Assembly (NCBI GenBank): GCA_018674095.1
Contig: JABHAX010000013.1
Span: 1-59,998 of the forward strand
Direction of reading: 5' to 3'
DNA length: 59,998 nt
Source of the DNA: Fidelibacterota bacterium
GTDB taxonomy: Bacteria; Fidelibacterota; Marinisomatia; Marinisomatales; UBA1611
Made by a program: the position numbers and the translations under genes. The notes under the pieces are model-generated. The model was not told the origin of the DNA. It saw nothing but the letters and a program-made list of their open reading frames with translations, and did no database searches. This document shows, piece after piece, positions 7,429 through 26,096 of the stretch; position 1 is the first letter of the stretch, and each line of letters starts with the position of its first letter.

Positions 7429-7457
7429 TTCCTTCATCCTTGGTTGGTTAACAAAAA

Positions 7458-7528: not shown

Positions 7529-8782
7529 TCAAAAATGATATTCCAGCCCAAACTTCAAATGAGAGAAATCTTCCATGGAATAGAATTGGGTCCCCTCTTC
7601 ACCCATAAATTTTGAAACAGATAGATTTAATTTCAAATTATCCATAGGCGAATATTTCGCAGATACACCCAACATGGATTGGGAATCCTTTAAGTCCATA
7701 AATGTATTTCCTGAAAGCTCTAAAGCATCATCAAAGTAATTGGCAGAAGCTGAAAGCATCAATCCCAAATCGGAAAAAGATGCGAATGGAGTACCCATTC
7801 CGGGTATTAATTCGGGGAGAGTAGTTTGGACTAATCTAGTATAGCCTAAATCTTCCAAAGAAAATATCCCTTCTATATACCCAATCAATTGACTTGAAAG
7901 CATGATATCTGTTGATGTGGTGTATTCTATCTGTTCCGCATATTGGATATAGGTAGTATTATTAAAATAAGGCCTATCCAAATTCATATCTATGTGAGTT
8001 TTAAAACGAGCAATCTCAATTCGATTTGTGAATTCACCAATAAAGGAAACCAAATCAAATCCAATAACATTTGTTTTTCTATAAAAAAAGGATGGAATAT
8101 TAGCATTCATTCCAACATAAGTGAACGATCGATCTCTTCCATTAAAATATGAAAAACTAAAATCGCTGGACCCAAAAGTAGATTGAATTCTTATTCCAAA
8201 TTCGCTTCCCGCATTTACATCCATCAAGTCTGGAGCAGCTTCAGGTATATCCAATGGAAAGGCTTTTTCACCAAATGGATAGCGATTCCCTTCATGCTCT
8301 GGAATGTACACACCTTCTATCTGCGAGTCGTTCCAATAATATTTTGCCGAGCCAGATATAGTTCCAATTTTACGATCCGCCCCAGGAAGAAACATATAAT
8401 AATAATCATAGGGATTCAAATTATCGGTAGGGTTATTTCCATCTACCGCGCCCCAGGCATGGATCTGTTTCCCTAGCTTTACTTCCCCCCAGCTTGGATA
8501 CCATGTTAAATAGGCTTCTCGTATTTGAAGTTCATTTTCATTATTGGACCAGCGATATTCTAATGCAGAATTGGTCTTGATTTCAAAATCACCCGATGAG
8601 TAACCTACTTCTGCTTCTGCTAACCTAAATGGGAGTGAAATTTCTGATTGATCCGAGAGGCGGACCATATTTCCCGGATTAATTGAACCGGAATATGATA
8701 TTTGTCCGTGTAACTTCGCAAGGAGCAGTGGTACCAACAGTAGCAGGATCTTGAGTTGCAGCACAAAAATAATTTTTATCAT
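7529..8782 (-). CDS. Outer-membrane beta-barrel, DUF1302-like (copy A)
   Basis: 417 aa; signal peptide, LGKQIHAWGAVDGNNPTDNLNPYDYYYMF motif and C-terminal MEDFSHLKFGLEYHF (terminal Phe typical of OMPs). Clear paralog of 16994-18421. Confidence 0.6.
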   Translation of the reverse strand: MIKIIFVLQLKILLLLVPLLLAKLHGQISYSGSINPGNMVRLSDQSEISLPFRLAEAEVGYSSGDFEIKTNSALEYRWSNNENELQIREAYLTWYPSWGEVKLGKQIHAWGAVDGNNPTDNLNPYDYYYMFLPGADRKIGTISGSAKYYWNDSQIEGVYIPEHEGNRYPFGEKAFPLDIPEAAPDLMDVNAGSEFGIRIQSTFGSSDFSFSYFNGRDRSFTYVGMNANIPSFFYRKTNVIGFDLVSFIGEFTNRIEIARFKTHIDMNLDRPYFNNTTYIQYAEQIEYTTSTDIMLSSQLIGYIEGIFSLEDLGYTRLVQTTLPELIPGMGTPFASFSDLGLMLSASANYFDDALELSGNTFMDLKDSQSMLGVSAKYSPMDNLKLNLSVSKFMGEEGTQFYSMEDFSHLKFGLEYHF

Positions 8783-8815
8783 TTTCTATTTTTTTGAAAG
8801 AAATTTGTAATTATG

Positions 8816-8865
8816 TAAAACGTAATTATCTAACATCCTAAACTCCATTACATATTTACGTTTTA
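8816..8865 (-). other. 10 bp perfect inverted repeat (stem-loop) in the LolA-like/OMP intergenic spacer
   Basis: TAAAACGTAA (8816-8825) and TTACGTTTTA (8856-8865) are exact reverse complements, separated by 30 nt. Confidence 0.4.
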
Positions 8866-8890
8866 AATAATTATTATAATTTTTTATCAT

Positions 8891-9640
8891 CTATTTTTTC
8901 GGAAGACGCTTTAAGTTTTTTTCTTGAAATAATTTTTCTTCAATCCTAGAATCTACTTCTATATCTGAAAAAGTCACTTCAGTTGAATGTTGTTTTTGAA
9001 CGTCCTCAACAAAAACACGCTTCATTATATCGAAACCTTTCATATCTTTGAATTCATATTCTTTTTTCTTTTTTAATTCGCCTCGTTTATCAAAGGATTC
9101 TTCTTTCACACCCATGAGCGTTGATTTTTCTATCCATGATATGTGTTTTGTATAGGACGATTTCGCCGACTTTTTTGGAAGGATTTCCAGCACATAGCAA
9201 TCTTTGCCACCCACCGTTTCATCATCTAAACGCCTGTATTCATTTTCATCTAAATCTCGGCTGGATAAATCCTCATAACTCAAATCAGACCCCATGAATG
9301 CATCCCCTTTTTTCTTGGAAGAGATACGTCTTACTTTTTTAAATGCAGGGAGCCACATGCGCATTTCATCATCTTTACCCTCGTGTTCGATCTTTAAAAA
9401 TGCCACGCCTTTGTCATCTTTCGGTTTCAGAAACCAGCTGATTTGTTTTTTATTGCCATCCATGGATTTCGATACCATTGACAAGGATCTGGATTTACCT
9501 TTTTTATTGGTTAATACCATTTTAGTCGTATTGGACATATCATCTGGTGATGGTTTTTCATCTACCAATTTGGCTATTTCAAATCCTGTTTGTGAAAATA
9601 CATAACCTATGAGAAGAATGATGATTATGGGTTTTTTCAT
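8891..9640 (-). CDS. LolA-like outer-membrane lipoprotein-sorting / periplasmic lipid carrier protein (copy A)
   Basis: 249 aa; signal peptide; motif MWLPAFKKVRRISSKKKGDAFMGSDLSYEDLSSR matches my recollection of the LolA_like family. Paralog of 22737-23504. Confidence 0.65.
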   Translation of the reverse strand: MKKPIIIILLIGYVFSQTGFEIAKLVDEKPSPDDMSNTTKMVLTNKKGKSRSLSMVSKSMDGNKKQISWFLKPKDDKGVAFLKIEHEGKDDEMRMWLPAFKKVRRISSKKKGDAFMGSDLSYEDLSSRDLDENEYRRLDDETVGGKDCYVLEILPKKSAKSSYTKHISWIEKSTLMGVKEESFDKRGELKKKKEYEFKDMKGFDIMKRVFVEDVQKQHSTEVTFSDIEVDSRIEEKLFQEKNLKRLPKK

Positions 9641-9730
9641 AATAATTGTCCTTTTATTTAATTTAAGTATTTATGTTTTTAGGTGTTCGAGGGTTCAATG
9701 CATTAACGCATGAACACTTTATACTTATCA

Positions 9731-10726
9731 CTACCACCGAATCGCGGCTGATGCCCATGTATAACCGGCGCCAAAGGCTGCGAGAATTATTGTATCTCCT
9801 GCCTTGATTTTCCCTTCTTCCACAGCCTCACACAGTGCTATCGGGATAGATGCTGCCGTCGTATTCCCATATCTTTGAATATTAGCATAAAATTTATCCA
9901 TGTTTACGCCCATTCTTTTTGCAACAGATTGGATAATTCTCAAATTCGCTTGATGGGGAATAATCAATGCAACATCATCCATGGAGAGATTATTTTTATC
10001 CAACGCTTCTTGAATAACCTCGGGAAAACGAACCACTGCATTCTTAAATACTTCGCGTCCATTCATAAAGGGTTCATATCTCTGTGCTTGTTCTATGGTA
10101 AGTTTGTTAATTTGGTTTAAACCAGATGATCCAGGGCCTTCCATCCATAAGTTTTTCATATCTTTCCCCTCGCTATGTAAATGAGTGGATAAAATACCAG
10201 CTTCATCTTGGCTAGGTTGAAGAATGACCGCACCCGCTCCATCACCAAAAAGAACAGAAATATCTCTTCCTTCTGTCGTTTTATTAATGAATTTTGACTG
10301 TGCTTCTGCACCAATCACAAGAGCAGTTTTATACATCCCAGATTGAATAAATTGATCTGCTGTGGAAAGAGCGTAAACAAATCCTGAACATGCAGCACGT
10401 AAATCAAAACAGCCGACATTTCTCAAACCCAGCATTTCCTGGAGTTGTGAACTCACGCCTGGGAAAAAATAATCGCTTGAAATAGTTGCCACAACTACGA
10501 GATCAATTTCTTCAGGGTTTATACCAGCATTTTCTATTGCCTTCTTTGCTGCAGGAAACGCAAGGTCTGATGCAGCTTCGTCTCCTTGTACCCAATGTCG
10601 TTCTTCAATACCGGATCGTGTTTTGATCCACTCATCCGAAGTGTCCATTAATTCAGTTAAATCTTGGTTTGTTACTACTTGACTGGGGACGTGATAGCCT
10701 ATCCCTTTTATGGCGCTTCTGATCAT
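9731..10726 (-). CDS. fabH: 3-oxoacyl-ACP synthase III (KAS III, FabH-type), copy A
   Basis: 331 aa; canonical Cys-His-Asn triad contexts (AACSGFVYAL, IPHQANLRI, GNTTAASIP). The start lies 3 nt after the stop of the upstream MMPL gene. Confidence 0.88.
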   Translation of the reverse strand: MIRSAIKGIGYHVPSQVVTNQDLTELMDTSDEWIKTRSGIEERHWVQGDEAASDLAFPAAKKAIENAGINPEEIDLVVVATISSDYFFPGVSSQLQEMLGLRNVGCFDLRAACSGFVYALSTADQFIQSGMYKTALVIGAEAQSKFINKTTEGRDISVLFGDGAGAVILQPSQDEAGILSTHLHSEGKDMKNLWMEGPGSSGLNQINKLTIEQAQRYEPFMNGREVFKNAVVRFPEVIQEALDKNNLSMDDVALIIPHQANLRIIQSVAKRMGVNMDKFYANIQRYGNTTAASIPIALCEAVEEGKIKAGDTIILAAFGAGYTWASAAIRW

Positions 10727-10729
10727 TTG

Positions 10730-13045
10730 TTAACTCCGTCCAATTAATTTTTTCTTTAATGATTCCGCAAGAGCTGCAAGCACTGTGAGTGTTCCAAGAG
10801 ATGTGGACATCATGGCGAAAACCATCAATCCACCAATATATTGGATTGATAAAAATGCCGAAAATAATAATGCACCAAATCCCATGTTAGATGCAGCATC
10901 CAAGATAATAGGATATCCCACATCATCCACGACTTCCCTGCTCAATTTATCTGCTGATACTGTTCTGGACAAACGACGGAATTGGGCAATGTAGTGAATC
11001 GAAAAATCAACACCAACTCCAATGATGATGGAGGACAGGAGTGCCGTAATATGGCTTAACTCAATTCCGAAATAACCCATAAAACCGAAATTAATAATGA
11101 CGGCAGATGAAAGCGGAATGACTGCTAAGAAACCCCATAAAATTCGTTTAAAAAATATGGATGCAATTACACCAATTACAAATAACGAAAATGTAATACT
11201 AAAGATGGATGATTTAATAATTAAAGTTACCAAATCCCGAAAAACAACCATCATTCCTGTAACATTAATTTTTAATTCCGGATTAAAATTTTCATCAATA
11301 TAGGCATCTATTTTTTCAACATAGCTAAAAATATCATCTGTTGACATAATTTTGCTCAAAGCGGTAACTAAGCCCACTTCATAATTATAATCAACCATGG
11401 AAGAAAAATCATCAGGATCACCGGACATAGAATACATGGTAAAAAGGTTATTCACTTTTTCACGATTTTCAGGAATGGTTTCAAATGCAATATCATCATC
11501 CATCACCGTCCTGTGCATTTGTTCCACCACATTTCCGATGGAATAACTGATAGTTACTTTTTCATCTATTTCCATAAAGTCCTGAAGAGCAATCATATCA
11601 GCTAATGTCCCCGGATCTTTCATATCACCTTCGATTCGGGCTCGGATGTCCATGGTTCCTGTTAGTTCTTCATCCATGAAGTCCATGCTGTCCCGAATTT
11701 CCGTCCCGGGTTTGAACATGCTAGCCATATTCACATCCACGGTAACTTTCATTAATCCAAACAAGCCTATGATGACAAAAATTGCCCCTGAAGAAAAAAC
11801 ATACTTTGGGTGACTCAGAACAAGTTTACCTAATTTATCGATCCCTCGTTCAAATAAACTGGGTTTGGATATAGCATTTGAATTAGCATCCCACTTTAAT
11901 AAACTAATGACAGCAGGCAACATCAGCGAACTCAAAAACCAAGCCCAAGTGATGCCCACACCAATGGTGACACCATAGCCAATCATGGGTTCTAACGGAG
12001 ATGAGATCATGGTTAAAAAAGCTGCGATTGTCGTAATGCTCGTTAAAAAGATGGGAATTAGCAAAGAATCCATGGTGGAAGCAACTGCGAGCCGAACATC
12101 ATTTTTTGAACGGAGTTCTTTAAAATATTTGGTCACAACATGAACACCATCCGAATTTGCAATCGTCAAAAGAATAATTGGCATGGACGTATTAGCCATA
12201 GTAAAAAGAAATCTTTCTGAACCCGTAAGTCGATAAATCCACCCCATAAAACCCATCATTGCAACGAGTGATAAACCTATCACCATCATAACCAAAGCCA
12301 CGCCTTTTGGGCTTCTCAAGTTTAGAAGCAGTATGGAAACCATGATCAGCATACCCATTTTCATAAGGCCTTGTACATCTTCTCGAATCATTTCTGGCAT
12401 GGTTCCGGTTACATAGGCATTCCCACCATAATGAATTTCATATCCTTTTAGAATCGGTTTAGTAATCGCAACCACTTCATTTCGGAAAACATCTAATCCT
12501 TTCGTATCATATGGTTGAATGATAACAACAATGTATTCATCTTTTTCACTGATGAGTCTAGTTTTAATTGTTTTATTCCGATCAAGATAATCCTTTATAT
12601 TATCTACATCTACTTGTGATAATTCCCGATCCGGTTGAAGATCGCCAACCTCCATAAATCCATCAATATTATCCATACGATTCATTCGAGAAACACTGGT
12701 GACTTCTTCAACTTTTTGTGAAGTTTCCAATTGGTCTGCCAAATCCCATGCTGTGGCAAATGCATCAGGCGTAAAAATCGTTTTATTTTTATGACCGAAA
12801 GCGATAAAAATCATTTCAGTACTTCCAAATTCATCTTGAAGTGCATCCCAAGACAAACGAGACTCTAAGTTTTTAGGAAGCATTTTCATGACATCATCAT
12901 CCACGACAAAAAATTGGAGTCCAAATCCCATGATAATTGTTGCGATAACAGACAATATAATAACGCGTATTGGGCGGTCTAAACTTTGGCGAATGAACCA
13001 TTGCCTTACAGGGTGATCAGAATAATTAAGTAGCGTGTTTTTCAT
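10730..13045 (-). CDS. RND-superfamily exporter, COG1033/MMPL (HpnN-like) type, copy A
   Basis: 771 aa; two 6-TM bundles with large soluble loops; motifs ANSDGVHVVTKY and GVGVDFSIHYIAQF. Paralog of 23808-26096. Confidence 0.85.
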   Translation of the reverse strand: MKNTLLNYSDHPVRQWFIRQSLDRPIRVIILSVIATIIMGFGLQFFVVDDDVMKMLPKNLESRLSWDALQDEFGSTEMIFIAFGHKNKTIFTPDAFATAWDLADQLETSQKVEEVTSVSRMNRMDNIDGFMEVGDLQPDRELSQVDVDNIKDYLDRNKTIKTRLISEKDEYIVVIIQPYDTKGLDVFRNEVVAITKPILKGYEIHYGGNAYVTGTMPEMIREDVQGLMKMGMLIMVSILLLNLRSPKGVALVMMVIGLSLVAMMGFMGWIYRLTGSERFLFTMANTSMPIILLTIANSDGVHVVTKYFKELRSKNDVRLAVASTMDSLLIPIFLTSITTIAAFLTMISSPLEPMIGYGVTIGVGITWAWFLSSLMLPAVISLLKWDANSNAISKPSLFERGIDKLGKLVLSHPKYVFSSGAIFVIIGLFGLMKVTVDVNMASMFKPGTEIRDSMDFMDEELTGTMDIRARIEGDMKDPGTLADMIALQDFMEIDEKVTISYSIGNVVEQMHRTVMDDDIAFETIPENREKVNNLFTMYSMSGDPDDFSSMVDYNYEVGLVTALSKIMSTDDIFSYVEKIDAYIDENFNPELKINVTGMMVVFRDLVTLIIKSSIFSITFSLFVIGVIASIFFKRILWGFLAVIPLSSAVIINFGFMGYFGIELSHITALLSSIIIGVGVDFSIHYIAQFRRLSRTVSADKLSREVVDDVGYPIILDAASNMGFGALLFSAFLSIQYIGGLMVFAMMSTSLGTLTVLAALAESLKKKLIGRS

Positions 13046-13649
13046 TATAAATATTTATAGCTTTTAATCCTTTTTCGTTAAAAATCCCTCGAGCTACAAT
13101 TTGGACAAATCCATGGATAGTATCTCGAATTGGGAGATCATTTTGGAGAAAGAATTCGGGTTGAAATGTGGAATTAATAATATTGATATAAACAATGGAC
13201 ATCGTTCTCATGTTGATTTCTTCACGCGCAAAACTTTGCTCTTGCGCATTTTTTAATATCGTATAAAAATCATCTTGATGCCCTAATCGGAATGCTTCTA
13301 CTTCTTTCCATATTTGGGGATATTGCGATTTGAGTTCTGCCAGATGGTTTACCGGGGTTCTACCCGCAAATTTGGAAATGTTTTCCATAATTTTCACAAA
13401 TTGAACAGCTGGATTAGGCTCATCTTTCATGACCGTTTCAAATACACCATTTATTTGTTCAAAAATATAAAGAATAATAGAATGAATTAAATTTTCTTTC
13501 GTAGGAAAGTGTTTATAAATCGTTTTTTTACTCATAGAGAGACGCTTTGCAAGCGATTCTACTGTAAAAGCACGAACGCCTGAGTTTGAAACAGACTCAA
13601 AGCCCTCGCCCAATATTTGATTTAATTGTTGATAATTTTTCACGGGCAA
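13026..13649 (-). CDS. TetR/AcrR-family transcriptional regulator
   Basis: 207 aa; HTH FTVESLAKRLSMSKKTIYKHFPTKENL. Non-ATG start (TTG 13649 or GTG 13643). Overlaps the MMPL start by 20 nt. Confidence 0.8.
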   Translation of the reverse strand: MPVKNYQQLNQILGEGFESVSNSGVRAFTVESLAKRLSMSKKTIYKHFPTKENLIHSIILYIFEQINGVFETVMKDEPNPAVQFVKIMENISKFAGRTPVNHLAELKSQYPQIWKEVEAFRLGHQDDFYTILKNAQEQSFAREEINMRTMSIVYINIINSTFQPEFFLQNDLPIRDTIHGFVQIVARGIFNEKGLKAINIYNEKHAT

Positions 13650-13650
13650 T

Positions 13651-13678
13651 GGAAACGATTTGCGTTTATATCGTTTCC
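13651..13678. promoter_or_regulatory. Perfect 9 bp dyad abutting the tetR start (candidate TetR operator)
   Basis: GGAAACGAT-N10-ATCGTTTCC, 2 nt upstream of the TTG start at 13649. No T-tract follows on the minus strand, so an intrinsic terminator is less likely. Confidence 0.4.
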
Positions 13679-13724
13679 AAACTTACAAATGTATTTATAA
13701 GAAAAAGGAATAAATATTTGAATT

Positions 13725-15179
13725 TTAGTTATTTATTATTGTTTGAAGTAGCATGATGACATCCGTGATAGTTACTGAACCATCACCATTATAATCTGCT
13801 GGGGGTGTCGATGTATATCCAAATCCGGAAGCCATATCTGCTACATGTAAAACATCTATAATATTAATGGATCCATCAAAATTCACATCGCCTAAAGTAA
13901 AATCAGGAAATCCACCGCCTAAATAATCCATGGGGAATTTTTGTCCACGTGCTATGAAAAACTGTGATCCACCGTATGTGTGACTCCATACTGTTTCATG
14001 ATCTTCTGTGACTTCGAACATTTTACCACTATCACAATCAGTAATAAAAGTATTTCCGTTGGGTAAGCGGTAAGCACCACCCTGCATTTGAGTATGGAAA
14101 GAACCAGAATGCATCCAAATTGGTTCATCTGGACCAAAGGGTTCATTGAGGGAAATATCATATAGCCCGTTACCGTTTAATGGAGGAATTAATTCAAAAA
14201 CAGCAGCCGTAGTATTCCCACCGTAATTATTATTGAATAAGATTAGATTTCCTGCGCCGGGATATCCTTCAGGAATCCAATTCACGCCATGTTGACCGGC
14301 AAGAAGATGATCTGAATTTGTCCCGCGATCATAGGCTTGCGGATTTCCCCATCGAAACAAATAATCACCACCCATTCCAGAGTTTCCTCCAGAATGACTC
14401 GCCGCTTCTTCTGTTGTAGTACTGTGATCGATAATATAAATCTCATCATGATGTCTGGAAGAAATGACGATTTGGTCTAAAACTTCATTGTAAGCAACAG
14501 CATTATAATGTTTCCAATCTCCGTTTGGGCCTCCGGGACCTTGGTTGCTTCCAGCACTTCCATAATTCACATCCTGCAATTCAGGATGATTTTCAATCAC
14601 ACCATAATTATCTAAATTTGGGTTCATATTCTGAATTAGATGGTCCCAAATGTGCCATTCCCAGATAATATTGACTTCATTTGTTCCCACCGGTTCAATT
14701 TCAAGAATAGCTTCTGCCCACATTTCGTTCAAAGAATTATCAATGGATTGACGACCAACAGCATAAGCTTCTGTGTCCGTTTTCTTTTCCCAGAGAATTA
14801 CGAGGATATTTCCATTTGGTAGTGGTTCAATATCATGATGGTGCTGATAGGTGTCATTAGCAAATTCATAAGACCAAAGAAGATCTCCGTCCCAATTGTA
14901 AGTTGAGATTCCGCCGCCAACGCCGCCAGCAGACATGGATGGATTTTGGACTTTATAAGGATAAATCAACGTGCTATCCTCCAATAAATAAGCCATACTT
15001 GCAGCACCGCGAGGGTGGCTCCAAGAATTAATAACATCTAAATCATTATCAACCAAAAAGGTTGAGAATCCATCACCACTATTTCCACCTTGTGTAGGAG
15101 AAAACAGTGTCATGCCGTTAAATACTTGTCCAAAAAGTTGACACGTAATAAATAGAAAAATAATTATGAATCGTTTCAT
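13725..15179 (-). CDS. ASST-like (aryl-sulfate sulfotransferase family) beta-propeller with C-terminal dockerin
   Basis: 484 aa; signal peptide; HHHDIEPLPNGNILVILWE, WHIWDHL and DWKHYNAVAYNEVLDQIVISSRHHDEIYIID resemble ASST-family motifs. The C-terminus has two Ca-loop repeats, DVNFDGSINIID and DYNGDGSVTITD (type I dockerin). Confidence 0.6.
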   Translation of the reverse strand: MKRFIIIFLFITCQLFGQVFNGMTLFSPTQGGNSGDGFSTFLVDNDLDVINSWSHPRGAASMAYLLEDSTLIYPYKVQNPSMSAGGVGGGISTYNWDGDLLWSYEFANDTYQHHHDIEPLPNGNILVILWEKKTDTEAYAVGRQSIDNSLNEMWAEAILEIEPVGTNEVNIIWEWHIWDHLIQNMNPNLDNYGVIENHPELQDVNYGSAGSNQGPGGPNGDWKHYNAVAYNEVLDQIVISSRHHDEIYIIDHSTTTEEAASHSGGNSGMGGDYLFRWGNPQAYDRGTNSDHLLAGQHGVNWIPEGYPGAGNLILFNNNYGGNTTAAVFELIPPLNGNGLYDISLNEPFGPDEPIWMHSGSFHTQMQGGAYRLPNGNTFITDCDSGKMFEVTEDHETVWSHTYGGSQFFIARGQKFPMDYLGGGFPDFTLGDVNFDGSINIIDVLHVADMASGFGYTSTPPADYNGDGSVTITDVIMLLQTIINN

Positions 15180-15312
15180 GGTTTATAAACAGTTTATTTT
15201 ATGATTTTGAAGACTTAATTTAACCTATAGATTCTTTTGGGTTTAAAAGGTTAAATATATTTTTAATTAACATCCTGTATCCCATCTTGAAATTTAACTA
15301 AAATTAATTCAA

Positions 15313-16395
15313 TTGGCACTTAAACGCATATTCAAAGTTTACACCGTTATCGGTAAAACGTTCGGCGCATGGATTTCACCAATATTTACGGGAATTGCCA
15401 TTGTTACGTTGCGCATTTTTGTATGGTTTGGGCAACAAATCGATAAAGTAATTTTTCCCGGTTTTAATCAGGCTCTAGAGAATCCCATTCTTATCGTAGG
15501 AAATCCAAGATCAGGGACAACCTTCCTGCACAGATTTTTAATCAAGAATGGATTTGGTGTAGGCTCTCAACTCTGGCAAATGGTGTATCCATCCATTTCT
15601 ATCCAAAAAGTCTTAAAGCCATTTTTACCCATCATGGAATTTATAAGTCCAGCTAAACATCATTCAACAGAAGCACATGAAACAAGCCTTTCATCTGTAG
15701 AAACGGATGATGTTTCACTTTTATTCCGATTTTTTGATGGATTCTTCTTGTACGGTTTTTTCCTTACATTCGATGAAAAAGATTTATTTGATTGGGTGGA
15801 CCCGAAAATTCGGAATACGTCAAAAAGAGATTTTGACTGGTTCGAGTCCATGTGGAAACGAAATTTGACATCGAACAATGGGCAGCGCTATATAGGAAAA
15901 CTTTTTAGTTTAAGTGGGAATCTTCCAGCGTTTCAAGAAAAATTCCCGGATGCAAAAATCCTTTATATGATTCGAGATCCATTGAGTGTAATTCCATCCG
16001 GATTAAGTTTAGTCACAGGTGTATTAGATAAAAAGTTTGGTTTTTGGTCTTTAGATGAAAAAATTCAAGAACGATTTATATCTAGACTTTATAAAGCCCT
16101 GGTTGAATTACTTACGAGGTTTCATGATGATTGGACCCACGATAGAATTGATAAAGAAAAAGTATTAATCGTCCGTTTTGATACCATGATGACTCAATTT
16201 GAATCTTTAATGAAACGAATCTCAGACTTCACTCAACACGAAATGACGGATGAACTAAGAAAGATTGTCCAAATTACAGCCGAAAATCAAAGAGGTTTTG
16301 AAAGTGGACATCGTTACGATTTAGAAAAATTTGGTCTTACTGAATCGCAAATTCGCCAAGATTGTGAAAAGATTTATCGAACTTTCTTAATTTAA
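15313..16395 (+). CDS. PAPS-dependent sulfotransferase with N-terminal membrane anchor
   Basis: 360 aa (TTG start); 5'-PSB-like loop GNPRSGTTFLHRFL and 3'-PB-like YMIRDPLSVIPS; N-terminal hydrophobic segment FGAWISPIFTGIAIVTLRIFVWF. Confidence 0.7.
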   Translation: MALKRIFKVYTVIGKTFGAWISPIFTGIAIVTLRIFVWFGQQIDKVIFPGFNQALENPILIVGNPRSGTTFLHRFLIKNGFGVGSQLWQMVYPSISIQKVLKPFLPIMEFISPAKHHSTEAHETSLSSVETDDVSLLFRFFDGFFLYGFFLTFDEKDLFDWVDPKIRNTSKRDFDWFESMWKRNLTSNNGQRYIGKLFSLSGNLPAFQEKFPDAKILYMIRDPLSVIPSGLSLVTGVLDKKFGFWSLDEKIQERFISRLYKALVELLTRFHDDWTHDRIDKEKVLIVRFDTMMTQFESLMKRISDFTQHEMTDELRKIVQITAENQRGFESGHRYDLEKFGLTESQIRQDCEKIYRTFLI

Positions 16396-16399
16396 AAAA

Positions 16400-16990: not shown

Positions 16991-16993
16991 ATT

Positions 16994-18421: not shown

Positions 18422-18432
18422 TATAAATTTTA

Positions 18433-18602: not shown

Positions 18603-18616
18603 ACTATAAAACCTAT

Positions 18617-19582
18617 ATGAAAATTAAAATAACAGGGGTTGGTTTATATCTTCCTCCCAAAATCGAAACAGCAGAAGACATTGCACCAAAAATCGGAAAA
18701 TCGGTAGAATGGATCATTGAAAAATCCGGTGTAAATGAACGACGCGTTTCCATTATTGACGTGGACCAAATGGGTGCATTAGCAGGAAAAGAAGCTCTAG
18801 ACAATGGTGGAAAGCCTGATTTAATCATCAATGCATCCGGTGTCCCAAAACAAACTATACCGGACACATCCACATTTTATCAACGAGAATTAGGATTTGA
18901 AGGTATTCCATCTTTTAGTATTCATTGCACCTGTCTCTCATTCATTGCAGCATTGAATACGGCCGCTTCTTTGATTCACTCGAAATCTTACAAACGAATC
19001 TTAATTATTTCTTCAGATCGTGGAACCCGTGGACGAAATTTTGATGAACCGGAAAGTGCATCTCTCTTGGGCGATGGCGCAGCTGCTATCGTGATAGAAC
19101 CAGCTAAATCGGTTGATGAAAGTGAACTCATTTATTTTGATATGAAAACATTTCCCAGTTGCGCCAACTTAACGGAAGTCCGTGGCGGCGGAACCCATAA
19201 ACATCCCCAAGATCCAAATACAACATTGGCTGATAATTTATTTACCATGGATGGGCCGGCGGTGTACAAAATCGCCCGGAAGGAAGTGTATCGTATGATG
19301 CTGAAAACAATGAAAATAACCGGATTCAAGCGGGAAGATGTGGATTGGGTGATTCCCCACCAAGCTTCCGGAAAAGCAGTGGATGCCTATATTTCAACGG
19401 GAGGATTCGCCCAAGAAAAAGTGGTGAGTATTATTTCGGAATTTGGGAATTGTGTGGCTGCTTCTGTCCCCATGGCATTTGCCACAGCGGTAAAAGATAA
19501 GCGAATCAAACGAGGCGACCTTTTATTATTTATTGGAACCGGCGCTGGACTCTCCGCTGCCTGTGCGCTTGTTAGGTATTGA
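18617..19582 (+). CDS. Divergent KAS III-like condensing enzyme (copy B)
   Basis: 321 aa; Cys-His-Asn contexts IHCTCLSFIAAL, IPHQASGKAV, FGNCVAASVP. More divergent from FabH than copy A. Confidence 0.75.
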   Translation: MKIKITGVGLYLPPKIETAEDIAPKIGKSVEWIIEKSGVNERRVSIIDVDQMGALAGKEALDNGGKPDLIINASGVPKQTIPDTSTFYQRELGFEGIPSFSIHCTCLSFIAALNTAASLIHSKSYKRILIISSDRGTRGRNFDEPESASLLGDGAAAIVIEPAKSVDESELIYFDMKTFPSCANLTEVRGGGTHKHPQDPNTTLADNLFTMDGPAVYKIARKEVYRMMLKTMKITGFKREDVDWVIPHQASGKAVDAYISTGGFAQEKVVSIISEFGNCVAASVPMAFATAVKDKRIKRGDLLLFIGTGAGLSAACALVRY

Positions 19583-20644
19583 TTACTTCACTAAAATCAT
19601 TTTTCGAAATTGTGTATCCGAACCATCTTTAATCTTTATAAAATAAACCCCCGATGAAAATTTGGATCCATTCCAATGAATGGTGTGCGTTCCAGATTTA
19701 TAAATTTTATCATGTGTAATTAATTCTACTTCGTTCCCTAATAAATCATAAACACGAATATCCATTTTCCGATCATAGGGAATTGTTATTTCAATTTGCG
19801 TCCTTGGATTAAACGGATTTGGAAAAGGCTGTGAAGTTTTTAATTGGGTTGGAAAAGCATTTTGTGAAATGGATACATCATCACAATCCTGTGGTGCATA
19901 AACCGGAAAAGAATAATAAAACTGGTCCAGACTTAGTTCAAAATGTTCACTTTCTGCCACACAGGTTCCCACACTATCGCAAAGCATATTGGCGCCAATA
20001 GCAAAATAAGGATATGCTCCATTATCATCATTATTCCAGTCCAAATTAAGGTCGCAAAAACAGTCCGGGAGTGATGCCAGATTATTATTAAAGAGCCATA
20101 GGTAAGTCAGATTTGTTAAGGAACAAACGGACGCCGGAATCGAATCTAATTCATTATATCCCAGATCGAAAAAATACAAATTTTCTAAATTTCCAATACT
20201 GTCTGGCAATGTCATTAATACATTATTATTAATATAAAAAGATTGGAGATTTTCCATTTCACTAAAAGATTCCGGTAAAACAGAAATCCGATTCCACTCT
20301 AAATACAGAGAAGCTAACCCAGTCCAATTCCCAACATTTTCAGGTAATGTATAAATCGTATCATTTACACCGGCACTATTGCCATAATTCCCAGCCACCA
20401 AAAACCGCAAACGGCCGTTAAACCAAGTTTGTGTCCCCAATTCCAAAGGTGAATCATAATCCAAATTATTGATAAAGATTAAACTGTCCAAAACTTCAAT
20501 ATCTTCATCAAAGAGACACGTATCGCCCACAAGGATTGTAACATTCGATGGGAGTTCAGAATAATAAGAATAGGCGCTATCACATTGGCCGTAAAGCTCC
20601 GATAGAACTAAAAATGTAATAATAATGAGAAAATATTTTTTCAT
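19583..20644 (-). CDS. Leucine-rich-repeat protein with T9SS C-terminal sorting domain
   Basis: 353 aa; LRRs (LPESFSEMENLQSFYINNNVLMTLPDSIGNLENLYFFDLGYNELDSIPASVCSLTNLTYLWLFNNNLASLP); tail FPNPFNPRTQIEI...SGVYFIKIKDGSDTQFRKMILVK. Confidence 0.8.
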   Translation of the reverse strand: MKKYFLIIITFLVLSELYGQCDSAYSYYSELPSNVTILVGDTCLFDEDIEVLDSLIFINNLDYDSPLELGTQTWFNGRLRFLVAGNYGNSAGVNDTIYTLPENVGNWTGLASLYLEWNRISVLPESFSEMENLQSFYINNNVLMTLPDSIGNLENLYFFDLGYNELDSIPASVCSLTNLTYLWLFNNNLASLPDCFCDLNLDWNNDDNGAYPYFAIGANMLCDSVGTCVAESEHFELSLDQFYYSFPVYAPQDCDDVSISQNAFPTQLKTSQPFPNPFNPRTQIEITIPYDRKMDIRVYDLLGNEVELITHDKIYKSGTHTIHWNGSKFSSGVYFIKIKDGSDTQFRKMILVK

Positions 20645-22707
20645 TATTTCAAAAATAATATTTTTTGAGTTTCTGATTTTTGCCCGGATGTTAATTTCAC
20701 AAAATAGATTCCCGATGGATTCCTTTTAGCATTCCATTTTGTTTCATGATTCCCGGATTCAATAATATCTTCAAATAATGTTTCAACTACTCGACCACTT
20801 ATGTCAAGAACTTTTAAAGATATCAATTCTGAATTCTGAACATTATATTGAATCGTAGTTTTAGGATTAAATGGATTTGGAAAGGCTGGAAATAATTCAA
20901 ATTTATGAGGAATAGGTTCTGATTCTGTCGATAATGGGAAGGTAAAACCATTAACAAGTGTGGTTTTTTCTTTTTCAGGGTGATATTCCGATGTAACAAT
21001 CAATGTAATTGGATTCCCATTTGAACTTTCCGTGACATTCCCTGTAAATGTAATTGTTTCGATTTGATTAGGGAATAGTTCAATTTCGCCTGATTGATTC
21101 CCGAACCAATCTGCTTGATCTGAAAGAGAGAAAGATAAAGCCAAATCATATTCACTCTCATTATGGAGGGTGAAAGAAATTTCCGATGAGCCAGATGGCA
21201 AATACACCCCTTGATTTTCACCGCTTACCAAGAAATTATCAATCATGACGCTATAAGCGGCGGGGAATAAACCGGGAATTCGATGTGCACGATAGACAGC
21301 ACCACTAGGTAAACTCAAATTATAATTAGCTTCCCAAACAATATTACCATTTGAATTGACTTCCAAACTTCGTCCGCCACCGCCAACCGTGGTGACCATT
21401 ACATTCCCATTTTCCATTTTTTGAGCATTTCCTGACGCGAAGCCAAAAAGGTCATCCGGTAGTTCATACGACCAAACTAAATCAGCATTATTTTGCGAAA
21501 TTGCTAATTCTATAGCCCGGGATTGAGGGTCATCAGTTCCGCGAAATTCCGGTGCCAAATTTCCATTATCAAATGTGATAATATTTCCGTTGTTTAAAAT
21601 TTGCAATGAATGTTGAAAACTGAATCCAATCTCATTTCCAAGTGTAACTTGGCCTGATGGCATTTCATGTCCCAGATTCCAAATAATGTCGCCAGATGGA
21701 TAATCGAGTTTTGTGATTCGAGACAAGTGTCGCGTGGAAAAATAAATTGCACTTTCAATTTCATCAAAAATAACAGCATTTACATGAGTCCAATCGTAAT
21801 GAAGATCAATATATGCTTGGCTCCATGTGCCACCAAATTGGTCATAATCCATCATGCTGAAATGGTCAAAAACACTCCATTCCCATACGACATCTCCAGT
21901 TTCGTTATCCCACTCCATAAGTTTATCACCAATCCAAATAAATTCCATGGTAACACCATCTGCTTGAAATCCCAATCCTTGGAACAAAGGAGTCCAATCG
22001 CCAATTGGAATGGGTCCAACAGCACTTGTTTCGACAATTCCGAGATAATTCCCATTTGGGAGTTTAATAAGATCGTGGTGAAGGAATTCATCATTGGGCT
22101 CTTCCCAAATTGTTTCACCTTCAAATGTAAATTCTTTCCCGGGTAAATTATTTTCCGAGCCGGAGACAAGTTCACATCCGAATACATCTCCAAATTCACT
22201 CGTGCTGTAATAGACTAAGTTTTCATTTCCGGAATTCCATATTTCTCTACCAGTCACATCTATGGCTGCTGAAAAATAATTGAAGAATGCGCCAAAAACT
22301 GTAATACCGTCTTGAATTTGGTTGGCAATTGAAATAGTTGTTGTCGTTTCTGATAAAGGTGATCCGGTTGAAAAAGAAAATGAATTGGTCCAGGGTAATG
22401 CCATGCCGTTGTTTCTCATTGCTCGAATTCGCCAGTAATATGTTTTTTCCCATTCAATGGTAGCTTGCTCGATGAATACTAAAGTTTGATTATTTGCTTG
22501 AACAATTGTATTGGAGAATGATGAATTCTCAGAAATTTGGATTTCGTAATAATCAGTTATTGGTTCTTGTTCCCACTCAAATAATACATGGAGATGATTC
22601 AGGATTGCTCCATTTTCAGGTGAAAGTAATTCAGCGACAAGTGGTGGGTTTATTGTAATAATAAATATCAAAAAATATAAATAAAAATGGTTCATTATTT
22701 CGCGCAT
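20644..22707 (-). CDS. ASST-like beta-propeller with T9SS C-terminal sorting domain
   Basis: 687 aa; LHHDLIKLPNGNYLGIV, WEWSVFDHF, DWTHVNAVIFDEIESAIYFSTRHLSRITKLDYPSGDIIWNLG; tail FPNPFNPKTTIQY...SGIYFVKLTSGQKSETQKILFLK. Its TAA stop overlaps the ATG of the LRR gene (TAATG). Confidence 0.6.
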   Translation of the reverse strand: MREIMNHFYLYFLIFIITINPPLVAELLSPENGAILNHLHVLFEWEQEPITDYYEIQISENSSFSNTIVQANNQTLVFIEQATIEWEKTYYWRIRAMRNNGMALPWTNSFSFSTGSPLSETTTTISIANQIQDGITVFGAFFNYFSAAIDVTGREIWNSGNENLVYYSTSEFGDVFGCELVSGSENNLPGKEFTFEGETIWEEPNDEFLHHDLIKLPNGNYLGIVETSAVGPIPIGDWTPLFQGLGFQADGVTMEFIWIGDKLMEWDNETGDVVWEWSVFDHFSMMDYDQFGGTWSQAYIDLHYDWTHVNAVIFDEIESAIYFSTRHLSRITKLDYPSGDIIWNLGHEMPSGQVTLGNEIGFSFQHSLQILNNGNIITFDNGNLAPEFRGTDDPQSRAIELAISQNNADLVWSYELPDDLFGFASGNAQKMENGNVMVTTVGGGGRSLEVNSNGNIVWEANYNLSLPSGAVYRAHRIPGLFPAAYSVMIDNFLVSGENQGVYLPSGSSEISFTLHNESEYDLALSFSLSDQADWFGNQSGEIELFPNQIETITFTGNVTESSNGNPITLIVTSEYHPEKEKTTLVNGFTFPLSTESEPIPHKFELFPAFPNPFNPKTTIQYNVQNSELISLKVLDISGRVVETLFEDIIESGNHETKWNAKRNPSGIYFVKLTSGQKSETQKILFLK

Positions 22708-22736
22708 GGTAATTAAACAATAAAAGATGAAATAGG

Positions 22737-23504
22737 TTAAAATTTTATTAAATACGATTCAGAAAATATTTCATCTTTCAATCCAACATTTGATTGAAAA
22801 TTTTTGATTTCCATCACTGTTCGCTTACCGTCCTCTTTAGCCATGACCATTTTCCCCGGTAAAACAAATCCATTTGATTCGATAAAATCTAAAATTGTTA
22901 ACGTTTTTAATTTTTGAGTTTCTTGAGAATAAAATTCAATTTTTTGAATTTTCCAATATTCAGAATTCACCCAAATTTTTCTTGAATGATATGTACTTTC
23001 GTTTTTTGGCCACGCCATTATTACACGGCAATGTCTTCCATTTATATATTCCACGCCGATAAAAGCTAATGAATCTTGTCCAAGTTTACGGCTTTCCAAA
23101 TCTTCATAAATAAAATCAGTTCCCATGAAGGATTTAGATCGTTCCTTTGATTTTACACGCTTAACCGTTTTAAGTTTTGGTAGAAAAAACCATTGGTCCG
23201 TTTTTCCATTTTTATAAGCCCAAGTCAATAATCCAGTCCCTTTTACTGTTTGGGGTTTTTTTAATCGAGCCAAGGATTTAAATTTGAATATCCCACTTTT
23301 ATAATTTTTTTGGAATCGAGTGAATTCACGAACTTTTATTTTTTCTTTTCCACGTTTAATACGAATAATTTCTAATTTTATATCAGAGATGGATGTATTC
23401 GGTTTGGTAACATTCAACACTTTTCCCATAATGTCAAATGCGGTCATTTCCTGCCCAATACCCATAGAAAGACAGCAAATGGATATAAATATTTTTTTAA
23501 TCAT
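22737..23504 (-). CDS. LolA-like outer-membrane lipoprotein-sorting / periplasmic lipid carrier protein (copy B)
   Basis: 255 aa; signal peptide; WFFLPKLKTVKRVKSKERSKSFMGTDFIYEDLESR. Paralog of 8891-9640. Confidence 0.65.
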   Translation of the reverse strand: MIKKIFISICCLSMGIGQEMTAFDIMGKVLNVTKPNTSISDIKLEIIRIKRGKEKIKVREFTRFQKNYKSGIFKFKSLARLKKPQTVKGTGLLTWAYKNGKTDQWFFLPKLKTVKRVKSKERSKSFMGTDFIYEDLESRKLGQDSLAFIGVEYINGRHCRVIMAWPKNESTYHSRKIWVNSEYWKIQKIEFYSQETQKLKTLTILDFIESNGFVLPGKMVMAKEDGKRTVMEIKNFQSNVGLKDEIFSESYLIKF

Positions 23505-23811
23505 TTTTACTATTATTATACTTGATGAATAAAAGTGAAATGGGTGTGAGTGAAATAATCAAAAGAGACAATGTGATATAATCCTGTTTGTATTTCAATT
23601 CATAATATCCAGCAATTTGAAGACAAATAAATACATACCCAATCATAATAAAATCAAAATAAGATTTAACTAAAAAATATAAATAATCCATAACAGATCC
23701 ATTGGGAATGGGATTTACATTATTCGCACTCCCAAATCCGTATAGAACTATAAGGCAAGATAATATTAAGAAAATGGTACTGTAAGTTTTATCTTTTTCT
23801 TCTGTTATCAT
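23497..23811 (-). CDS. Small integral membrane protein (3 predicted TM helices), unknown function
   Basis: 104 aa hydrophobic ORF. It overlaps the MMPL stop by 4 nt (ATGA-type) and the LolA-like start by 8 nt, which argues for translation within the operon. Confidence 0.45.
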   Translation of the reverse strand: MITEEKDKTYSTIFLILSCLIVLYGFGSANNVNPIPNGSVMDYLYFLVKSYFDFIMIGYVFICLQIAGYYELKYKQDYITLSLLIISLTPISLLFIKYNNSKND

Positions 23812-26096
23812 CGATATAAGAATTTAGGGTTAAGCAAACTGATTAATGCTGGAAGAGTTGCCAATGCACCGAATAAACAAAATGAGATGGAAGCCATGAC
23901 CAATATTCCAAATATTTGTACGGGAACAAATACCGAAAATAACAGAGCCGAAAATCCAACAATAACGGATAAGCCATTAAAAAGAATACCTTTTCCTGAA
24001 ATAAGAAATGTATTGGCAATAGCCTCATCCAAGGTATCTCCATATTTAATATGGTCACGTAAATGCCACAAAAAATGAACCGTATAATCCACACCAACAC
24101 CCACAAGGATTCCGGTTAACATGGATGTAGTCATATTCAATGGAATATCTAAATATCCCATGAGACCAAACATCATAGCTACCGATGCAACCATGGGAAG
24201 CGTGGCGAGTAATCCTCCCGTAATAGATCTAAATACCAAAGTCATAATAATAAAAATAATAAAAATAGAATAGGCTAAACTCACCATTTGACCTTGCAAT
24301 ACTAGGCGCGTCAGTACACCCAATAAGGCTGCGCCTCCTGTAATTTCCATAGGAGCATCATCATAAAAATTGGCCAAAATATATTGATCTGTATCTTCAA
24401 CGATTTCTGCAATTGTAATTGTTTGAACTTCCTTTAACCTGAGAAAAACTTGCGTAAAAGATGGATCTTCCATATCATCTAACATCAAATCAAAATCATC
24501 TCCATCTCCCGTGATAGAATACAAAAACATATATTGAGAAATCAATTCACGATCATCAGGAATCACTTCATAAGTCGGATCACCGCCATTAAACCCGGCG
24601 TTCATTTTCTTTATCACATCCACAATGGAATATGATTTGGTCACAATTTCGTGAGCATCCTTTATATGATCAGTAAGCATTTCAATATTTCGTAACAATT
24701 CCGGATCGTAAATATCACCTTCAACAAGAATATGCATTTGTGTTGATCCGCCAAAGGCTTCACTGATTTTTGTATTGGCAATCCTTAATCTGGAATCTTC
24801 TGGAAAATAATGGTCAGGATTGGTGTCAACTTTTAATTTAGAAATGCCCATTGAGAGCCAAATGCCAATGGTTAATAGAAAGATTAAAGTTGGGATTCTA
24901 TATCGAGTAAATCCTCTGCCCAGTGAAACCAAAATATTATTTATGGTTGTTAAACCATTCGTTTTAGTTAAATAAGTTGGACGAGGCAACAGAACCAACA
25001 CCGATGGAATCAAGAAAATACTTAAAATAAAGGCCACCAGAATCCCGAATGAAATGAGCAATCCCATTTCACGAACCCGTGGTAATGCATGAGATAATAG
25101 GCTCATAAAACTAATCATTGTGGTTAACCCTGCCAAAAAAATGGGAACGCCTAGTTTACGAATTGTTTTTCGTAGAATTTTTCCCCGTGTGGCTTCCGGA
25201 TCTAATATAGTGTATTCATAATAATGAGAAATAATATGAATCCCATAATTATTTGCGATTGCAATTAACATAACTGGAATCAATGTGCCAATGAATGTTA
25301 CCGAAATATTAAGCCAGCCCATAACCCCGAAGGTCCAAATAATAGAGAACCCCACAACAAAAAAAGGTAGAAAAACACCAGTCCAGCTACGGAAAGTTAT
25401 CATAAGAAGTAAAATTCCTAACCCTAATGCAATTGGGGTATATACACGAAGGTCACGTTGCATATTTTCAATAATCGTCGCTCGAGTAATGGGTAAGCTG
25501 GATACGTAAAAATTTTCCGGTTGACTAAAGCGATTGACCAAACTGAATACTCTTTGTCGAAATTCAAATTCATCATAGTCAAATGATGAAATAATCTGGC
25601 CAATAAAACACAATTTATTAAAATCATTTGAAACCAAATTTCCAACGATTCCCGATTGTTTTAATTTTGATATTAATTCACTTAAGCTTACAGAATCATT
25701 TGGAATTTCAATGAGTAAAGGCTCAATCTCAAAGCCACCATCTTCTGGCAGAATATGCTTTTGGGTAAAAATTGACGTGACATTTCCAATGAAGTCAATA
25801 GATTCCAGCGAATCTTGGAATGCAGAAAGTTTCGTGAGTGTGGCATGGGAAAAAAGGCTATCTGATTCAACCGCAATAATTATAATATCGCTACCGGAAA
25901 AAAGCTCATCCACTTTTTCCATGGATTGAACAATTTCATGATTTCGCGGAAGCATGGATTTAACTCCCGGATCCAACTCTAATGAAAAAAGTTTCCATCC
26001 TAATATCACTGTTATAAAAATTACGCCAGCTATAATTGTCCGGGGATAATGGGAATCAAAATCAAATAAGTGTCTGGAGAATTCTCTAATATTCAT
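23808..26096 (-). CDS. RND-superfamily exporter, COG1033/MMPL (HpnN-like) type, copy B
   Basis: 762 aa; motifs ANNYGIHIISHY and GVGVDYTVHFLWHL; same topology as copy A. Confidence 0.85.
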   Translation of the reverse strand: MNIREFSRHLFDFDSHYPRTIIAGVIFITVILGWKLFSLELDPGVKSMLPRNHEIVQSMEKVDELFSGSDIIIIAVESDSLFSHATLTKLSAFQDSLESIDFIGNVTSIFTQKHILPEDGGFEIEPLLIEIPNDSVSLSELISKLKQSGIVGNLVSNDFNKLCFIGQIISSFDYDEFEFRQRVFSLVNRFSQPENFYVSSLPITRATIIENMQRDLRVYTPIALGLGILLLMITFRSWTGVFLPFFVVGFSIIWTFGVMGWLNISVTFIGTLIPVMLIAIANNYGIHIISHYYEYTILDPEATRGKILRKTIRKLGVPIFLAGLTTMISFMSLLSHALPRVREMGLLISFGILVAFILSIFLIPSVLVLLPRPTYLTKTNGLTTINNILVSLGRGFTRYRIPTLIFLLTIGIWLSMGISKLKVDTNPDHYFPEDSRLRIANTKISEAFGGSTQMHILVEGDIYDPELLRNIEMLTDHIKDAHEIVTKSYSIVDVIKKMNAGFNGGDPTYEVIPDDRELISQYMFLYSITGDGDDFDLMLDDMEDPSFTQVFLRLKEVQTITIAEIVEDTDQYILANFYDDAPMEITGGAALLGVLTRLVLQGQMVSLAYSIFIIFIIMTLVFRSITGGLLATLPMVASVAMMFGLMGYLDIPLNMTTSMLTGILVGVGVDYTVHFLWHLRDHIKYGDTLDEAIANTFLISGKGILFNGLSVIVGFSALLFSVFVPVQIFGILVMASISFCLFGALATLPALISLLNPKFLYR

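Follow-up and report, generated by a model that had tools for sequence, protein, structure and literature searches.

Positions 7529 to 26096 of the window (the whole analyzed stretch of 59,998 nucleotides, from contig JABHAX010000013.1 of a Fidelibacterota bacterium) carry a cluster of 15 genes in which sulfotransferases and condensing enzymes are encoded together with proteins of envelope transport. The cluster may be a trans-envelope relay of sulfuryl donors, a reading assembled step by step from sequence and genomic context and given slightly less than an even chance. In its specific form, which is held somewhat more tentatively, Marinimicrobia have a dedicated pathway in which a small hydrophobic carrier takes activated sulfate from the cell, by way of a resistance-nodulation-division (RND) pump, LolA-like and START-like proteins and an outer-membrane barrel, to surface-displayed arylsulfate sulfotransferases (ASSTs). 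The carrier would probably be an alkylpyrone sulfated from 3'-phosphoadenosine 5'-phosphosulfate (PAPS).

PAPS is confined to the cytoplasm. A relay is proposed because the two ASST-type propellers of the cluster (ASST-A and ASST-B) are predicted to lie outside the cytoplasm, where they would have no PAPS, and because START-like and barrel genes are their invariable neighbors and RND and LolA-like genes their usual ones. The component families are known, and their combination is new to the searchable literature: no description of the gene combination was found there, nor any linking an ASST to type IX secretion (T9SS), SAR406 or Marinimicrobia. Public records name the cluster proteins by domain only.

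Conservation of the cluster in Marinimicrobia

A scan of one genome per GTDB species with patterns of the outer-membrane barrel B gave 60 loci, all of Marinimicrobia type, the patterns being specific to that family. Marine metagenomes are the origin of the barrel B and ASST-B orthologs, which, wherever a source is given, are assigned to Candidatus Marinimicrobia, Neomarinimicrobiota or Fidelibacterota (FCB group). The window proteins were mapped onto 64 loci, and gene presence was scored in those 22 species loci where barrel B is flanked by 8 kb or more of sequence on each side. Genes for the pump, carrier and barrel are co-localized with condensing enzyme and sulfotransfer genes across ~60 Marinimicrobia species loci. 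This co-localization is real and old, and it bears out a preliminary description of the stretch, made from the sequence alone, that had regarded the ketoacyl synthase III (KAS III) and sulfotransferase genes as joined to the transport genes.

ASST-A, the PAPS-type sulfotransferase (sulfT), the START-like protein and barrel B are each found in 22/22 species loci, and the leucine-rich repeat (LRR) protein and ASST-B in 21/22; together they are the invariant core. The ketosynthase KAS-B is present in 17/22, at least one RND and LolA-like pair in 18/22, and both pairs in 12/22. Barrel A (4/22), KAS-A (3/22) and the TetR regulator (1/22 by the criteria applied) are lineage-specific add-ons. The doubled module, which the preliminary description took for the defining layout, is thus a minority state. 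A FadB gene lies nearby in only 4/22 loci, which weakens beta-oxidation linkage as a key to function.

The genes also keep their order. ASST-A and sulfT are divergent neighbors wherever a locus holds both (44/44). The order sulfT, START, ASST-B, LRR and barrel B forms a single same-strand run in 18 species, followed by KAS-B in 16, and the LRR gene is always paired with ASST-B. In 24 loci, LolA-A, RND-A and ASST-A stand together in a run on one strand, and RND-B, the gene for a 104 aa membrane protein and LolA-B form a run in 23, the 104 aa gene always lying between the other two and overlapping both. A divergent clade has only a minimal module, as seen in L043, in which a T9SS-tagged ASST, sulfT, START and barrel are flanked by housekeeping genes; the ASST has been kept, and KAS-B and the RND gene have been lost.

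In five species of divergent clades (Table 1), the RND/LolA/ASST operon has within it the gene for a PAPS synthase of ~550 aa, a bifunctional enzyme with PUA_2, ATP-sulfurylase and APS kinase domains. This gene is absent from the window, and apart from it no further conserved component was found across the 64 loci. Its embedding in these five species marks sulfation as a predicted central function of the cluster.

Some loci depart from the common pattern. One species has three tandem ASST-A copies of 567-575 aa (L055, 2545-7993), and two have an ASST-B of ~1190 aa with extra domains (L037, 11435-15019; L046, 3226-6807). KAS-B and RND-B are each split into two open reading frames (ORFs) in L003 (11492-12461 and 13538-15827), a polished long-read assembly, through either frameshift error or pseudogenization. 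A contig labeled as a Winogradskyella sp. metagenome-assembled genome (L038, CAXRJK010000049.1) carries a core of Marinimicrobia type, with ASST-A, sulfT, START and barrel B at 46-60% identity; its label probably reflects contamination during binning and not a second phylum.

Enzymes and envelope proteins of the cluster

Profile searches support the MMPL, LolA_like, ACP_syn_III, Arylsulfotrans, TetR_N, Sulfotransfer_3 and LRR assignments of the preliminary description. The Arylsulfotrans family (PF05935; cutoff 24.2) is matched by ASST-A with 71.6 bits (E 8e-20) and by ASST-B with 96.7 bits (E 2e-27), and both also match PF14269. Their nearest solved relative is Cpz4 (9kf4/9kf6, identified as Cpz4 from the Foldseek entry titles, with no paper found that mentions either code), with a joint ASST-A/ASST-B profile E of 1.9e-21 versus 1e-9 for E. 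coli AssT. ASST-B as a single sequence also matches Cpz4 (E 2e-15), and Cpz4 is the top Foldseek match of its AlphaFold2 (AF2) model (E 2.7e-17, TMt 0.56).

In AssT (EcAST), H436 accepts the sulfuryl group and H356, N358 and R374 bind it (PMC13426309). When the joint profile is aligned with 3elq, H356/N358/R374/H436 of AssT correspond to H308/N310/R326/H366 of ASST-B, which are invariant in 37/37 sequences. The same four AssT residues are the counterparts of the catalytic residues of ASST-A, where H113-H115, H224, N226, R242 and Q296-H297 are conserved in 47-48/48 orthologs. H252 and T501 of AssT fall outside the aligned stretch; ASST-B has an invariant HH at 210/211 and a near-invariant T439. 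The active site is intact, and the ASSTs are predicted to be catalytic.

Signal-like N-termini are seen on the ASSTs, the START-like and LolA-like proteins and the barrels; KAS-B has none. The T9SS sorting domain Por_Secre_tail is found in ASST-B and the LRR protein. ASST-A matches Dockerin_1, with a type I dockerin-like module at C-terminal residues ~426-484 that is detectable in 6/10 sampled ASST-A orthologs; no cohesin partner was identified for it. In the divergent clade, an ASST-A-like protein of ~785 aa has a T9SS sorting domain in place of the dockerin. Neither the dockerin nor the T9SS domains figured in the preliminary description. With signal-like N-termini and either a T9SS C-terminal domain (CTD) or a dockerin, the ASSTs are predicted to be extracytoplasmic. 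Their earlier treatment as accessory sulfotransfer enzymes does not fit proteins that appear secreted, catalytically intact, PAPS-independent and closest to Cpz4 among solved structures.

The sulfotransferase sulfT matches Sulfotransfer_3 and Sulfotransfer_1. Its 5'-phosphosulfate-binding (5'-PSB) motif PRSGTT and an RDP...S motif resembling the 3'-phosphate-binding (3'-PB) motif are conserved in 53-55/55 orthologs. It also has a conserved hydrophobic N-terminal region of ~55 aa. Its closest relatives in the PDB, both weak, are the mycobacterial Stf9 and Stf1.

Although KAS-A and KAS-B both match ACP_syn_III, as the preliminary description had it, they are not equivalent paralogs. KAS-A is a canonical FabH by its scores, which exceed the NCBIfam FabH cutoffs (NF006829, 413.8 against 249; TIGR00747, 394.6 against 292.1) and reach 295 bits for E. 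coli FabH 1hn9 against 121 for CorB; it is 42-47% identical to FabHs. KAS-B falls below the same cutoffs (224.2 and 207.5, respectively) and scores 200 bits with CorB and 195 with MxnB, against at most 156 with any FabH in the PDB. It is 39% identical to CorB and 37% to MxnB, shares with them the CLSF motif and a GGG..HP..DN insertion, and groups with them apart from FabH at 100% bootstrap in a small neighbor-joining tree of few taxa. The Cys-His-Asn triad of KAS-B (C106, H248, N278) is invariant in 34/34. CorB and MxnB join two chains head-to-head, with an alpha-pyrone as the product (PMC4578411), and KAS-B is closer by sequence to these pyrone-forming enzymes than to FabH; pyrone formation by KAS-B is putative. 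The chalcone/stilbene synthase family was not matched by KAS-B, and by KAS-A only below the Pfam gathering score; no type III polyketide synthase (PKS) is present in the cluster.

The two pumps, 28% identical to each other, each have the MMPL domain (PF03176) in two stretches and hydrophobic segments in two clusters. RND-A, with ~12 or more hydrophobic segments, matches MMPL, Patched and the sterol-sensing domain; RND-B matches MMPL (E 4.7e-41) and the sterol-sensing domain. TIGR00921 is matched by RND-A with 171 bits (E 2.4e-50) and by RND-B with 283 bits (E 3e-84), both below cutoff, so the two are taken as divergent HAE3/MMPL members. The LolA-like carriers match PF17131 (cutoff 30) with 184.2 bits (E 2.4e-54) for carrier A and 164.8 bits (E 2.1e-48) for carrier B, and are 32% identical over 99 aa. 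Carrier A also has a weak DUF1329 match, and its solved relatives are 9tp6, 3bk5 and 4z48. The 104 aa protein has no Pfam match; its three hydrophobic segments agree with the membrane character previously ascribed to it, and the pump may have in it a small subunit of its own.

The barrels had both been called DUF1302-like. This holds marginally for barrel A (PF06980, 25.9 bits, cutoff 23.2), which has a signal-like N-terminal segment and ends in ...YHF. Barrel B has no Pfam match of its own, and the call is supported through its relatives, with DUF1302 matches in 3/42 close members and 18/34 wider representatives (best E 2e-10). It is 31% identical to barrel A over the full length (E 1e-58) and ends in ...KYYF. 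The shared motif described earlier as LGKQIH.WG.VD is common to both as GKQIH.WG.VD, the leading L being M in barrel B. The AF2 model of barrel B is a large barrel (pLDDT 80.5), and AlgE is its top Foldseek match in the PDB (TM 0.50-0.56); AlgE has also been reported as a fold match for DUF1302 (PMC13499233). Likewise, the 196 aa protein described as START-like has no Pfam match itself, and the call stands on its orthologs, which match START in 15/26 (best E 4e-9) and Polyketide_cyc in 6/26.

The proposed relay, its precedents and its rivals

In the cytoplasm, KAS-B would condense two acyl or beta-ketoacyl thioesters, supplied, as they are to PpyS and PyrS, by fatty-acid synthesis or beta-oxidation, to an alkyl-4-hydroxy-alpha-pyrone or a comparable lipid of enolic or phenolic type, which the membrane-anchored, PAPS-dependent sulfT would O-sulfate. 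The HAE3/MMPL RND pump would pull the sulfated amphiphile out of the inner membrane, the LolA-like and START-like proteins would shield it in the periplasm, and the DUF1302-like barrel would let it through the outer membrane. There the PAPS-independent ASSTs, ASST-B secreted through T9SS with its LRR partner and ASST-A bearing a dockerin, would accept the sulfuryl group on the catalytic histidine and hand it on, outside the cytoplasm, to putative acceptors, for instance surface glycans, proteins or exogenous phenolics. Each ASST lies in one same-strand run with its own RND/LolA pair, and this co-transcription suggests two supply lines. Whereas the preliminary description held that the direction of transport could not be told from sequence, export is favored over uptake, because a PAPS synthase is embedded in the cluster and beta-oxidation genes are near it in so few loci (4/22).

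The closest precedent, which the preliminary description missed although it was right that no characterized system with this gene set is on record, as far as published descriptions were found, is caprazamycin biosynthesis in Streptomyces sp. MK730-62F2. In the account of Tang et al. 2013 given in PMC4257720 and PMC4924298, pyrones produced by the type III PKS Cpz6 receive sulfate from PAPS through Cpz8, and the ASST-type Cpz4 then takes the sulfated pyrone as donor. The Marinimicrobia cluster likewise combines a condensing enzyme (putatively pyrone-forming), a PAPS-dependent sulfotransferase and PAPS-independent ASSTs of Cpz4 type, sulfT being likened to Cpz8 by enzyme class and gene context and not by sequence. 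It has a CorB/MxnB-like KAS III in place of Cpz6, and because no type III PKS is present the resemblance is functional and does not extend to the condensing-enzyme component. Further differences are that its ASSTs, with their T9SS CTD or dockerin, are predicted to be secreted by a diderm, that genes for transport proteins (RND, LolA-like, START-like and barrel) belong to the set, and that the putative acceptor is not an antibiotic. KAS-B has the Cys-His-Asn triad, the CLSF motif and an insertion that FabH lacks in common with CorB and MxnB (4yuc, 4v2p; PMC5506619, PMC5724707, PMC4578411); unlike these, it has no PKS assembly line or carrier proteins encoded near it, and its activity is putative. 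With the periplasmic E. coli AssT (3elq; PMC13426309) the ASSTs share the family, the catalytic residues and an extracytoplasmic location. The relation is distant (profile E 1e-9), however, and here there is no dedicated Dsb pair like DsbL/DsbI, the proteins are T9SS- or dockerin-tagged, and they are linked to a putative donor-supply pathway.

Several points weigh against the proposed relay. KAS-B is absent within 10 kb in 5/22 loci and an RND gene in 4/22, so that there the carrier and inner-membrane exporter would be encoded elsewhere, or different molecules would be used. KAS-B is only 39% identical to CorB, the tree that joins them has few taxa, and the best NCBIfam model for KAS-B is PRK07204, a generic uncharacterized KAS III, below cutoff. 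Basic residues flank the sulfT anchor on both sides, which leaves its topology ambiguous by the positive-inside rule, and the AF2 model of ASST-B is of moderate quality (pLDDT 71.8). In addition, a sulfated lipid as the final product accounts for much of the same gene content.

This last alternative, that a sulfated (pyrone) lipid is the end product, installed in the outer membrane or released as a surface lipid or signal while the ASSTs remodel or recycle sulfate, is unlikely, and still the best of the rivals. The gene set resembles lipid-export clusters, such as that for aryl polyenes with ApeM (RND), ApeL (LolA-like) and ApeN (LolB-like) (PMC8253772), where a dedicated RND pump and LolA-like chaperone are also encoded with KAS-type biosynthetic genes and the lipid is placed in the outer membrane. 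Aryl polyene clusters differ in having acyl carrier proteins, dehydratases, reductases and acyltransferases, which are lacking here, and a LolB-like protein, whose place is taken in Marinimicrobia by a START-like protein together with a barrel; nothing in them corresponds to the sulfation enzymes. Further points in favor of such a lipid are the embedded PAPS synthase, the conservation of the START, LolA and barrel genes, and the action as signals of photopyrones and pseudopyronines from related ketosynthases (PMC4578411).

The Stf-type relatives of sulfT lead in the same direction, as its nearest solved relatives are mycobacterial. In the mycobacterial sulfolipid pathway, PAPS-dependent sulfation of a lipid precursor by Stf0 is linked to export through MmpL8; the envelope is different and the sulfolipid itself is the end product. 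The pathway is not known to include an ASST, a LolA-like protein or a barrel. As an end product, the lipid would leave the most conserved partners of sulfT, the intact and secreted ASSTs (22/22 and 21/22), with no necessary role; their closest solved relative, Cpz4, consumes a donor, and the minimal module retains an ASST where KAS-B and RND are gone. The relay is rated above it because the ASSTs appear secreted and catalytically intact and have Cpz4 as nearest relative. The preliminary description, which proposed a KAS III-derived surface lipid, possibly phenolic or sulfated, with its own conduit, is thus supported in sulfation and in the co-localized transport genes, and less so in the lipid as end product.

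A good deal less probable is that the cluster represents, in Marinimicrobia, the system that Proteobacteria form from a DUF1302 barrel, a DUF1329/LolA-like protein, a propeller and an HAE3 RND pump, with the ASSTs as a structural propeller and hydrophobic substrates moved by efflux or by uptake feeding beta-oxidation. Such four-component systems include AmeABCD of Castellaniella defragrans (PMC6394551), Sama_1588-1591 (bioRxiv 10.1101/072470) and PP_0765/0766 with PP_2018/2019 (bioRxiv 10.1101/2020.07.04.188060), and the hydrophobic substrates that they export or take up include fatty esters, terpenes and hydrocarbons. All four protein types have matches here and are co-transcribed, and in the AmeABCD-type systems too they are encoded together; the barrel family matches DUF1302 and LolA-A matches DUF1329. 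Fatty-acid catabolism genes are sometimes adjacent in both, and a TetR-acyl-CoA dehydrogenase-thiolase-FadB operon adjoins module A of the window. Cofitness and fatty-ester or monoterpene phenotypes in the literature on the proteobacterial systems also favor it. However, FadB is the exception among the loci, and the propeller, six-bladed and of ASST type with its catalytic site invariant, is not of the Ycf48/BNR type (no COG4447 propeller is found among the cluster proteins). Being T9SS-exported or dockerin-bearing, it would be at the surface and not periplasmic. The barrels are shorter (417 and 475 aa versus ~600) and marginally DUF1302, and the added sulfotransferase, START-like protein, KAS III and, in some species, PAPS synthase set the cluster apart; sulfotransferase, PAPS synthase and KAS-B would be left unexplained.

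Least probable of all is that surface ASSTs detoxify or modify exogenous phenolics, with neighbors that are unrelated: sulfate shuffling between environmental aryl sulfates and phenols has been proposed for gut and uropathogen ASSTs, which are promiscuous and whose natural donors, acceptors and roles in bacteria are an acknowledged open question (PMC13426309), but the donor is more likely to be supplied endogenously, given the embedded PAPS synthase and a tightly conserved gene order in which sulfT, START, ASST-B, LRR and barrel B share a single operon in 18 species, with KAS-B following in 16.

If the relay is real, it would be the first system for sulfation outside the cytoplasm in bacteria and would provide the first physiological donor and role for ASSTs outside antibiotic biosynthesis; spanning the envelope and acting extracellularly, such a version would represent a new kind of system. 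It would explain how a diderm sulfates material outside the cell although PAPS stays in the cytoplasm, and would offer a candidate ASST donor pathway that could be rebuilt from four or five genes. Conduits of DUF1302, DUF1329/LolA-like and HAE3 RND proteins have been without a defined cargo, and the genetic context here points to one, which the relay, if true, would establish. Marinimicrobia (SAR406) are abundant in the ocean interior, where surface or extracellular sulfation could affect particle attachment, interactions with phages and grazers, and the marine organosulfur pool. Biocatalysis could also profit from secreted ASSTs whose biosynthetic donor is cheap.

Gene layout and other features of the window

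All 15 ORFs of the preliminary description are present at the positions and on the strands it gave (Table 1), in the three transcription units it described: same-strand runs from 15179 to 7529 (minus), 15313 to 19582 (plus) and 26096 to 19583 (minus). A promoter and terminator scan of 7300-27200 was uninformative, with fewer sites than in shuffled sequences. The five paralog pairs are homologous at 23-32% identity and, because of this divergence, are old paralogs as judged by sequence; assembly duplication, already doubted in the preliminary description, is ruled out by the identity together with the recurrence of the layout in independent assemblies. Barrel B and KAS-B are separated by 195 bp (18422-18616) in which no feature was recognized; the gap is 12 bp in L001 and L004.

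Table 1. Genes of the cluster in the window, and PAPS synthase genes at other loci (positions in the respective locus).
Gene	Description	Position	Strand	Pfam
Barrel A	DUF1302-like outer-membrane beta-barrel, 417 aa, accessory	7529..8782	-	
LolA-A	LolA-like periplasmic carrier A (PF17131/TP_0789-like, weak DUF1329)	8891..9640	-	
KAS-A	Canonical FabH-type KAS III by sequence, accessory	9731..10726	-	
RND-A	HAE3/MMPL-type inner-membrane transporter	10730..13045	-	
TetR	TetR-family regulator, 20 nt overlap with RND-A start	13026..13649	-	TetR_N
ASST-A	Predicted secreted PAPS-independent aryl-sulfotransferase-type six-bladed propeller with C-terminal dockerin	13725..15179	-	
sulfT	PAPS-type sulfotransferase, hydrophobic N-terminal anchor	15313..16395	+	Sulfotransfer_3/1
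START-like	START/SRPBCC-like secreted small protein, 196 aa, putative periplasmic hydrophobic-ligand carrier	16400..16990	+	
Barrel B	Divergent DUF1302-like outer-membrane beta-barrel, 475 aa	16994..18421	+	
KAS-B	CorB/MxnB-like KAS III, putative head-to-head alpha-pyrone-forming ketosynthase	18617..19582	+	
LRR	LRR protein with T9SS C-terminal sorting domain	19583..20644	-	LRR_8, LRR_4, Por_Secre_tail
ASST-B	Predicted T9SS-secreted aryl-sulfotransferase-type propeller with N-terminal Ig-like domain	20644..22707	-	
LolA-B	LolA-like periplasmic carrier B	22737..23504	-	
104 aa protein	Membrane protein, three hydrophobic segments	23497..23811	-	
RND-B	HAE3/MMPL-type inner-membrane transporter	23808..26096	-	
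PAPS synthase, L049/L050/L052	Bifunctional PAPS synthase	15505-17142		
PAPS synthase, L060	Bifunctional PAPS synthase	9780-11450		
PAPS synthase, L062	Bifunctional PAPS synthase	16205-17830		

The beta-oxidation operon directly adjoining module A (1155-7428, plus strand) encodes a TetR regulator, acyl-CoA dehydrogenase, thiolase and a FadB-like 3-hydroxyacyl-CoA dehydrogenase/enoyl-CoA hydratase. It could be a source of 3-ketoacyl-CoA for KAS-B, or its adjacency could be due to chance.

Two additional T9SS cargo proteins are encoded in the window. A protein with FG-GAP repeats and a weak reprolysin-like region (27174-29396, plus strand) directly follows the cluster and is not among the recurrent neighbors at the other loci; the second is a 1290 aa Big_5 protein (52636-56508, minus strand). 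A further sulfur-related gene encodes a TauE/SafE-family membrane protein of the sulfite/sulfonate exporter type (51781-52536, plus strand). A lipid-related run on the minus strand (42252-50112) encodes an esterase, a spore-photoproduct-lyase-like radical SAM protein, a class V aminotransferase, a fatty-acid desaturase, a hydrolase resembling platelet-activating factor (PAF) acetylhydrolase and a TMEM164-family protein. Two tandem glyceraldehyde-3-phosphate dehydrogenase (GAPDH) paralogs (36864-38881, minus strand) lie beside genes for class I fructose-bisphosphate aldolase, phosphofructokinase (PFK) and acetyl-CoA synthetase.

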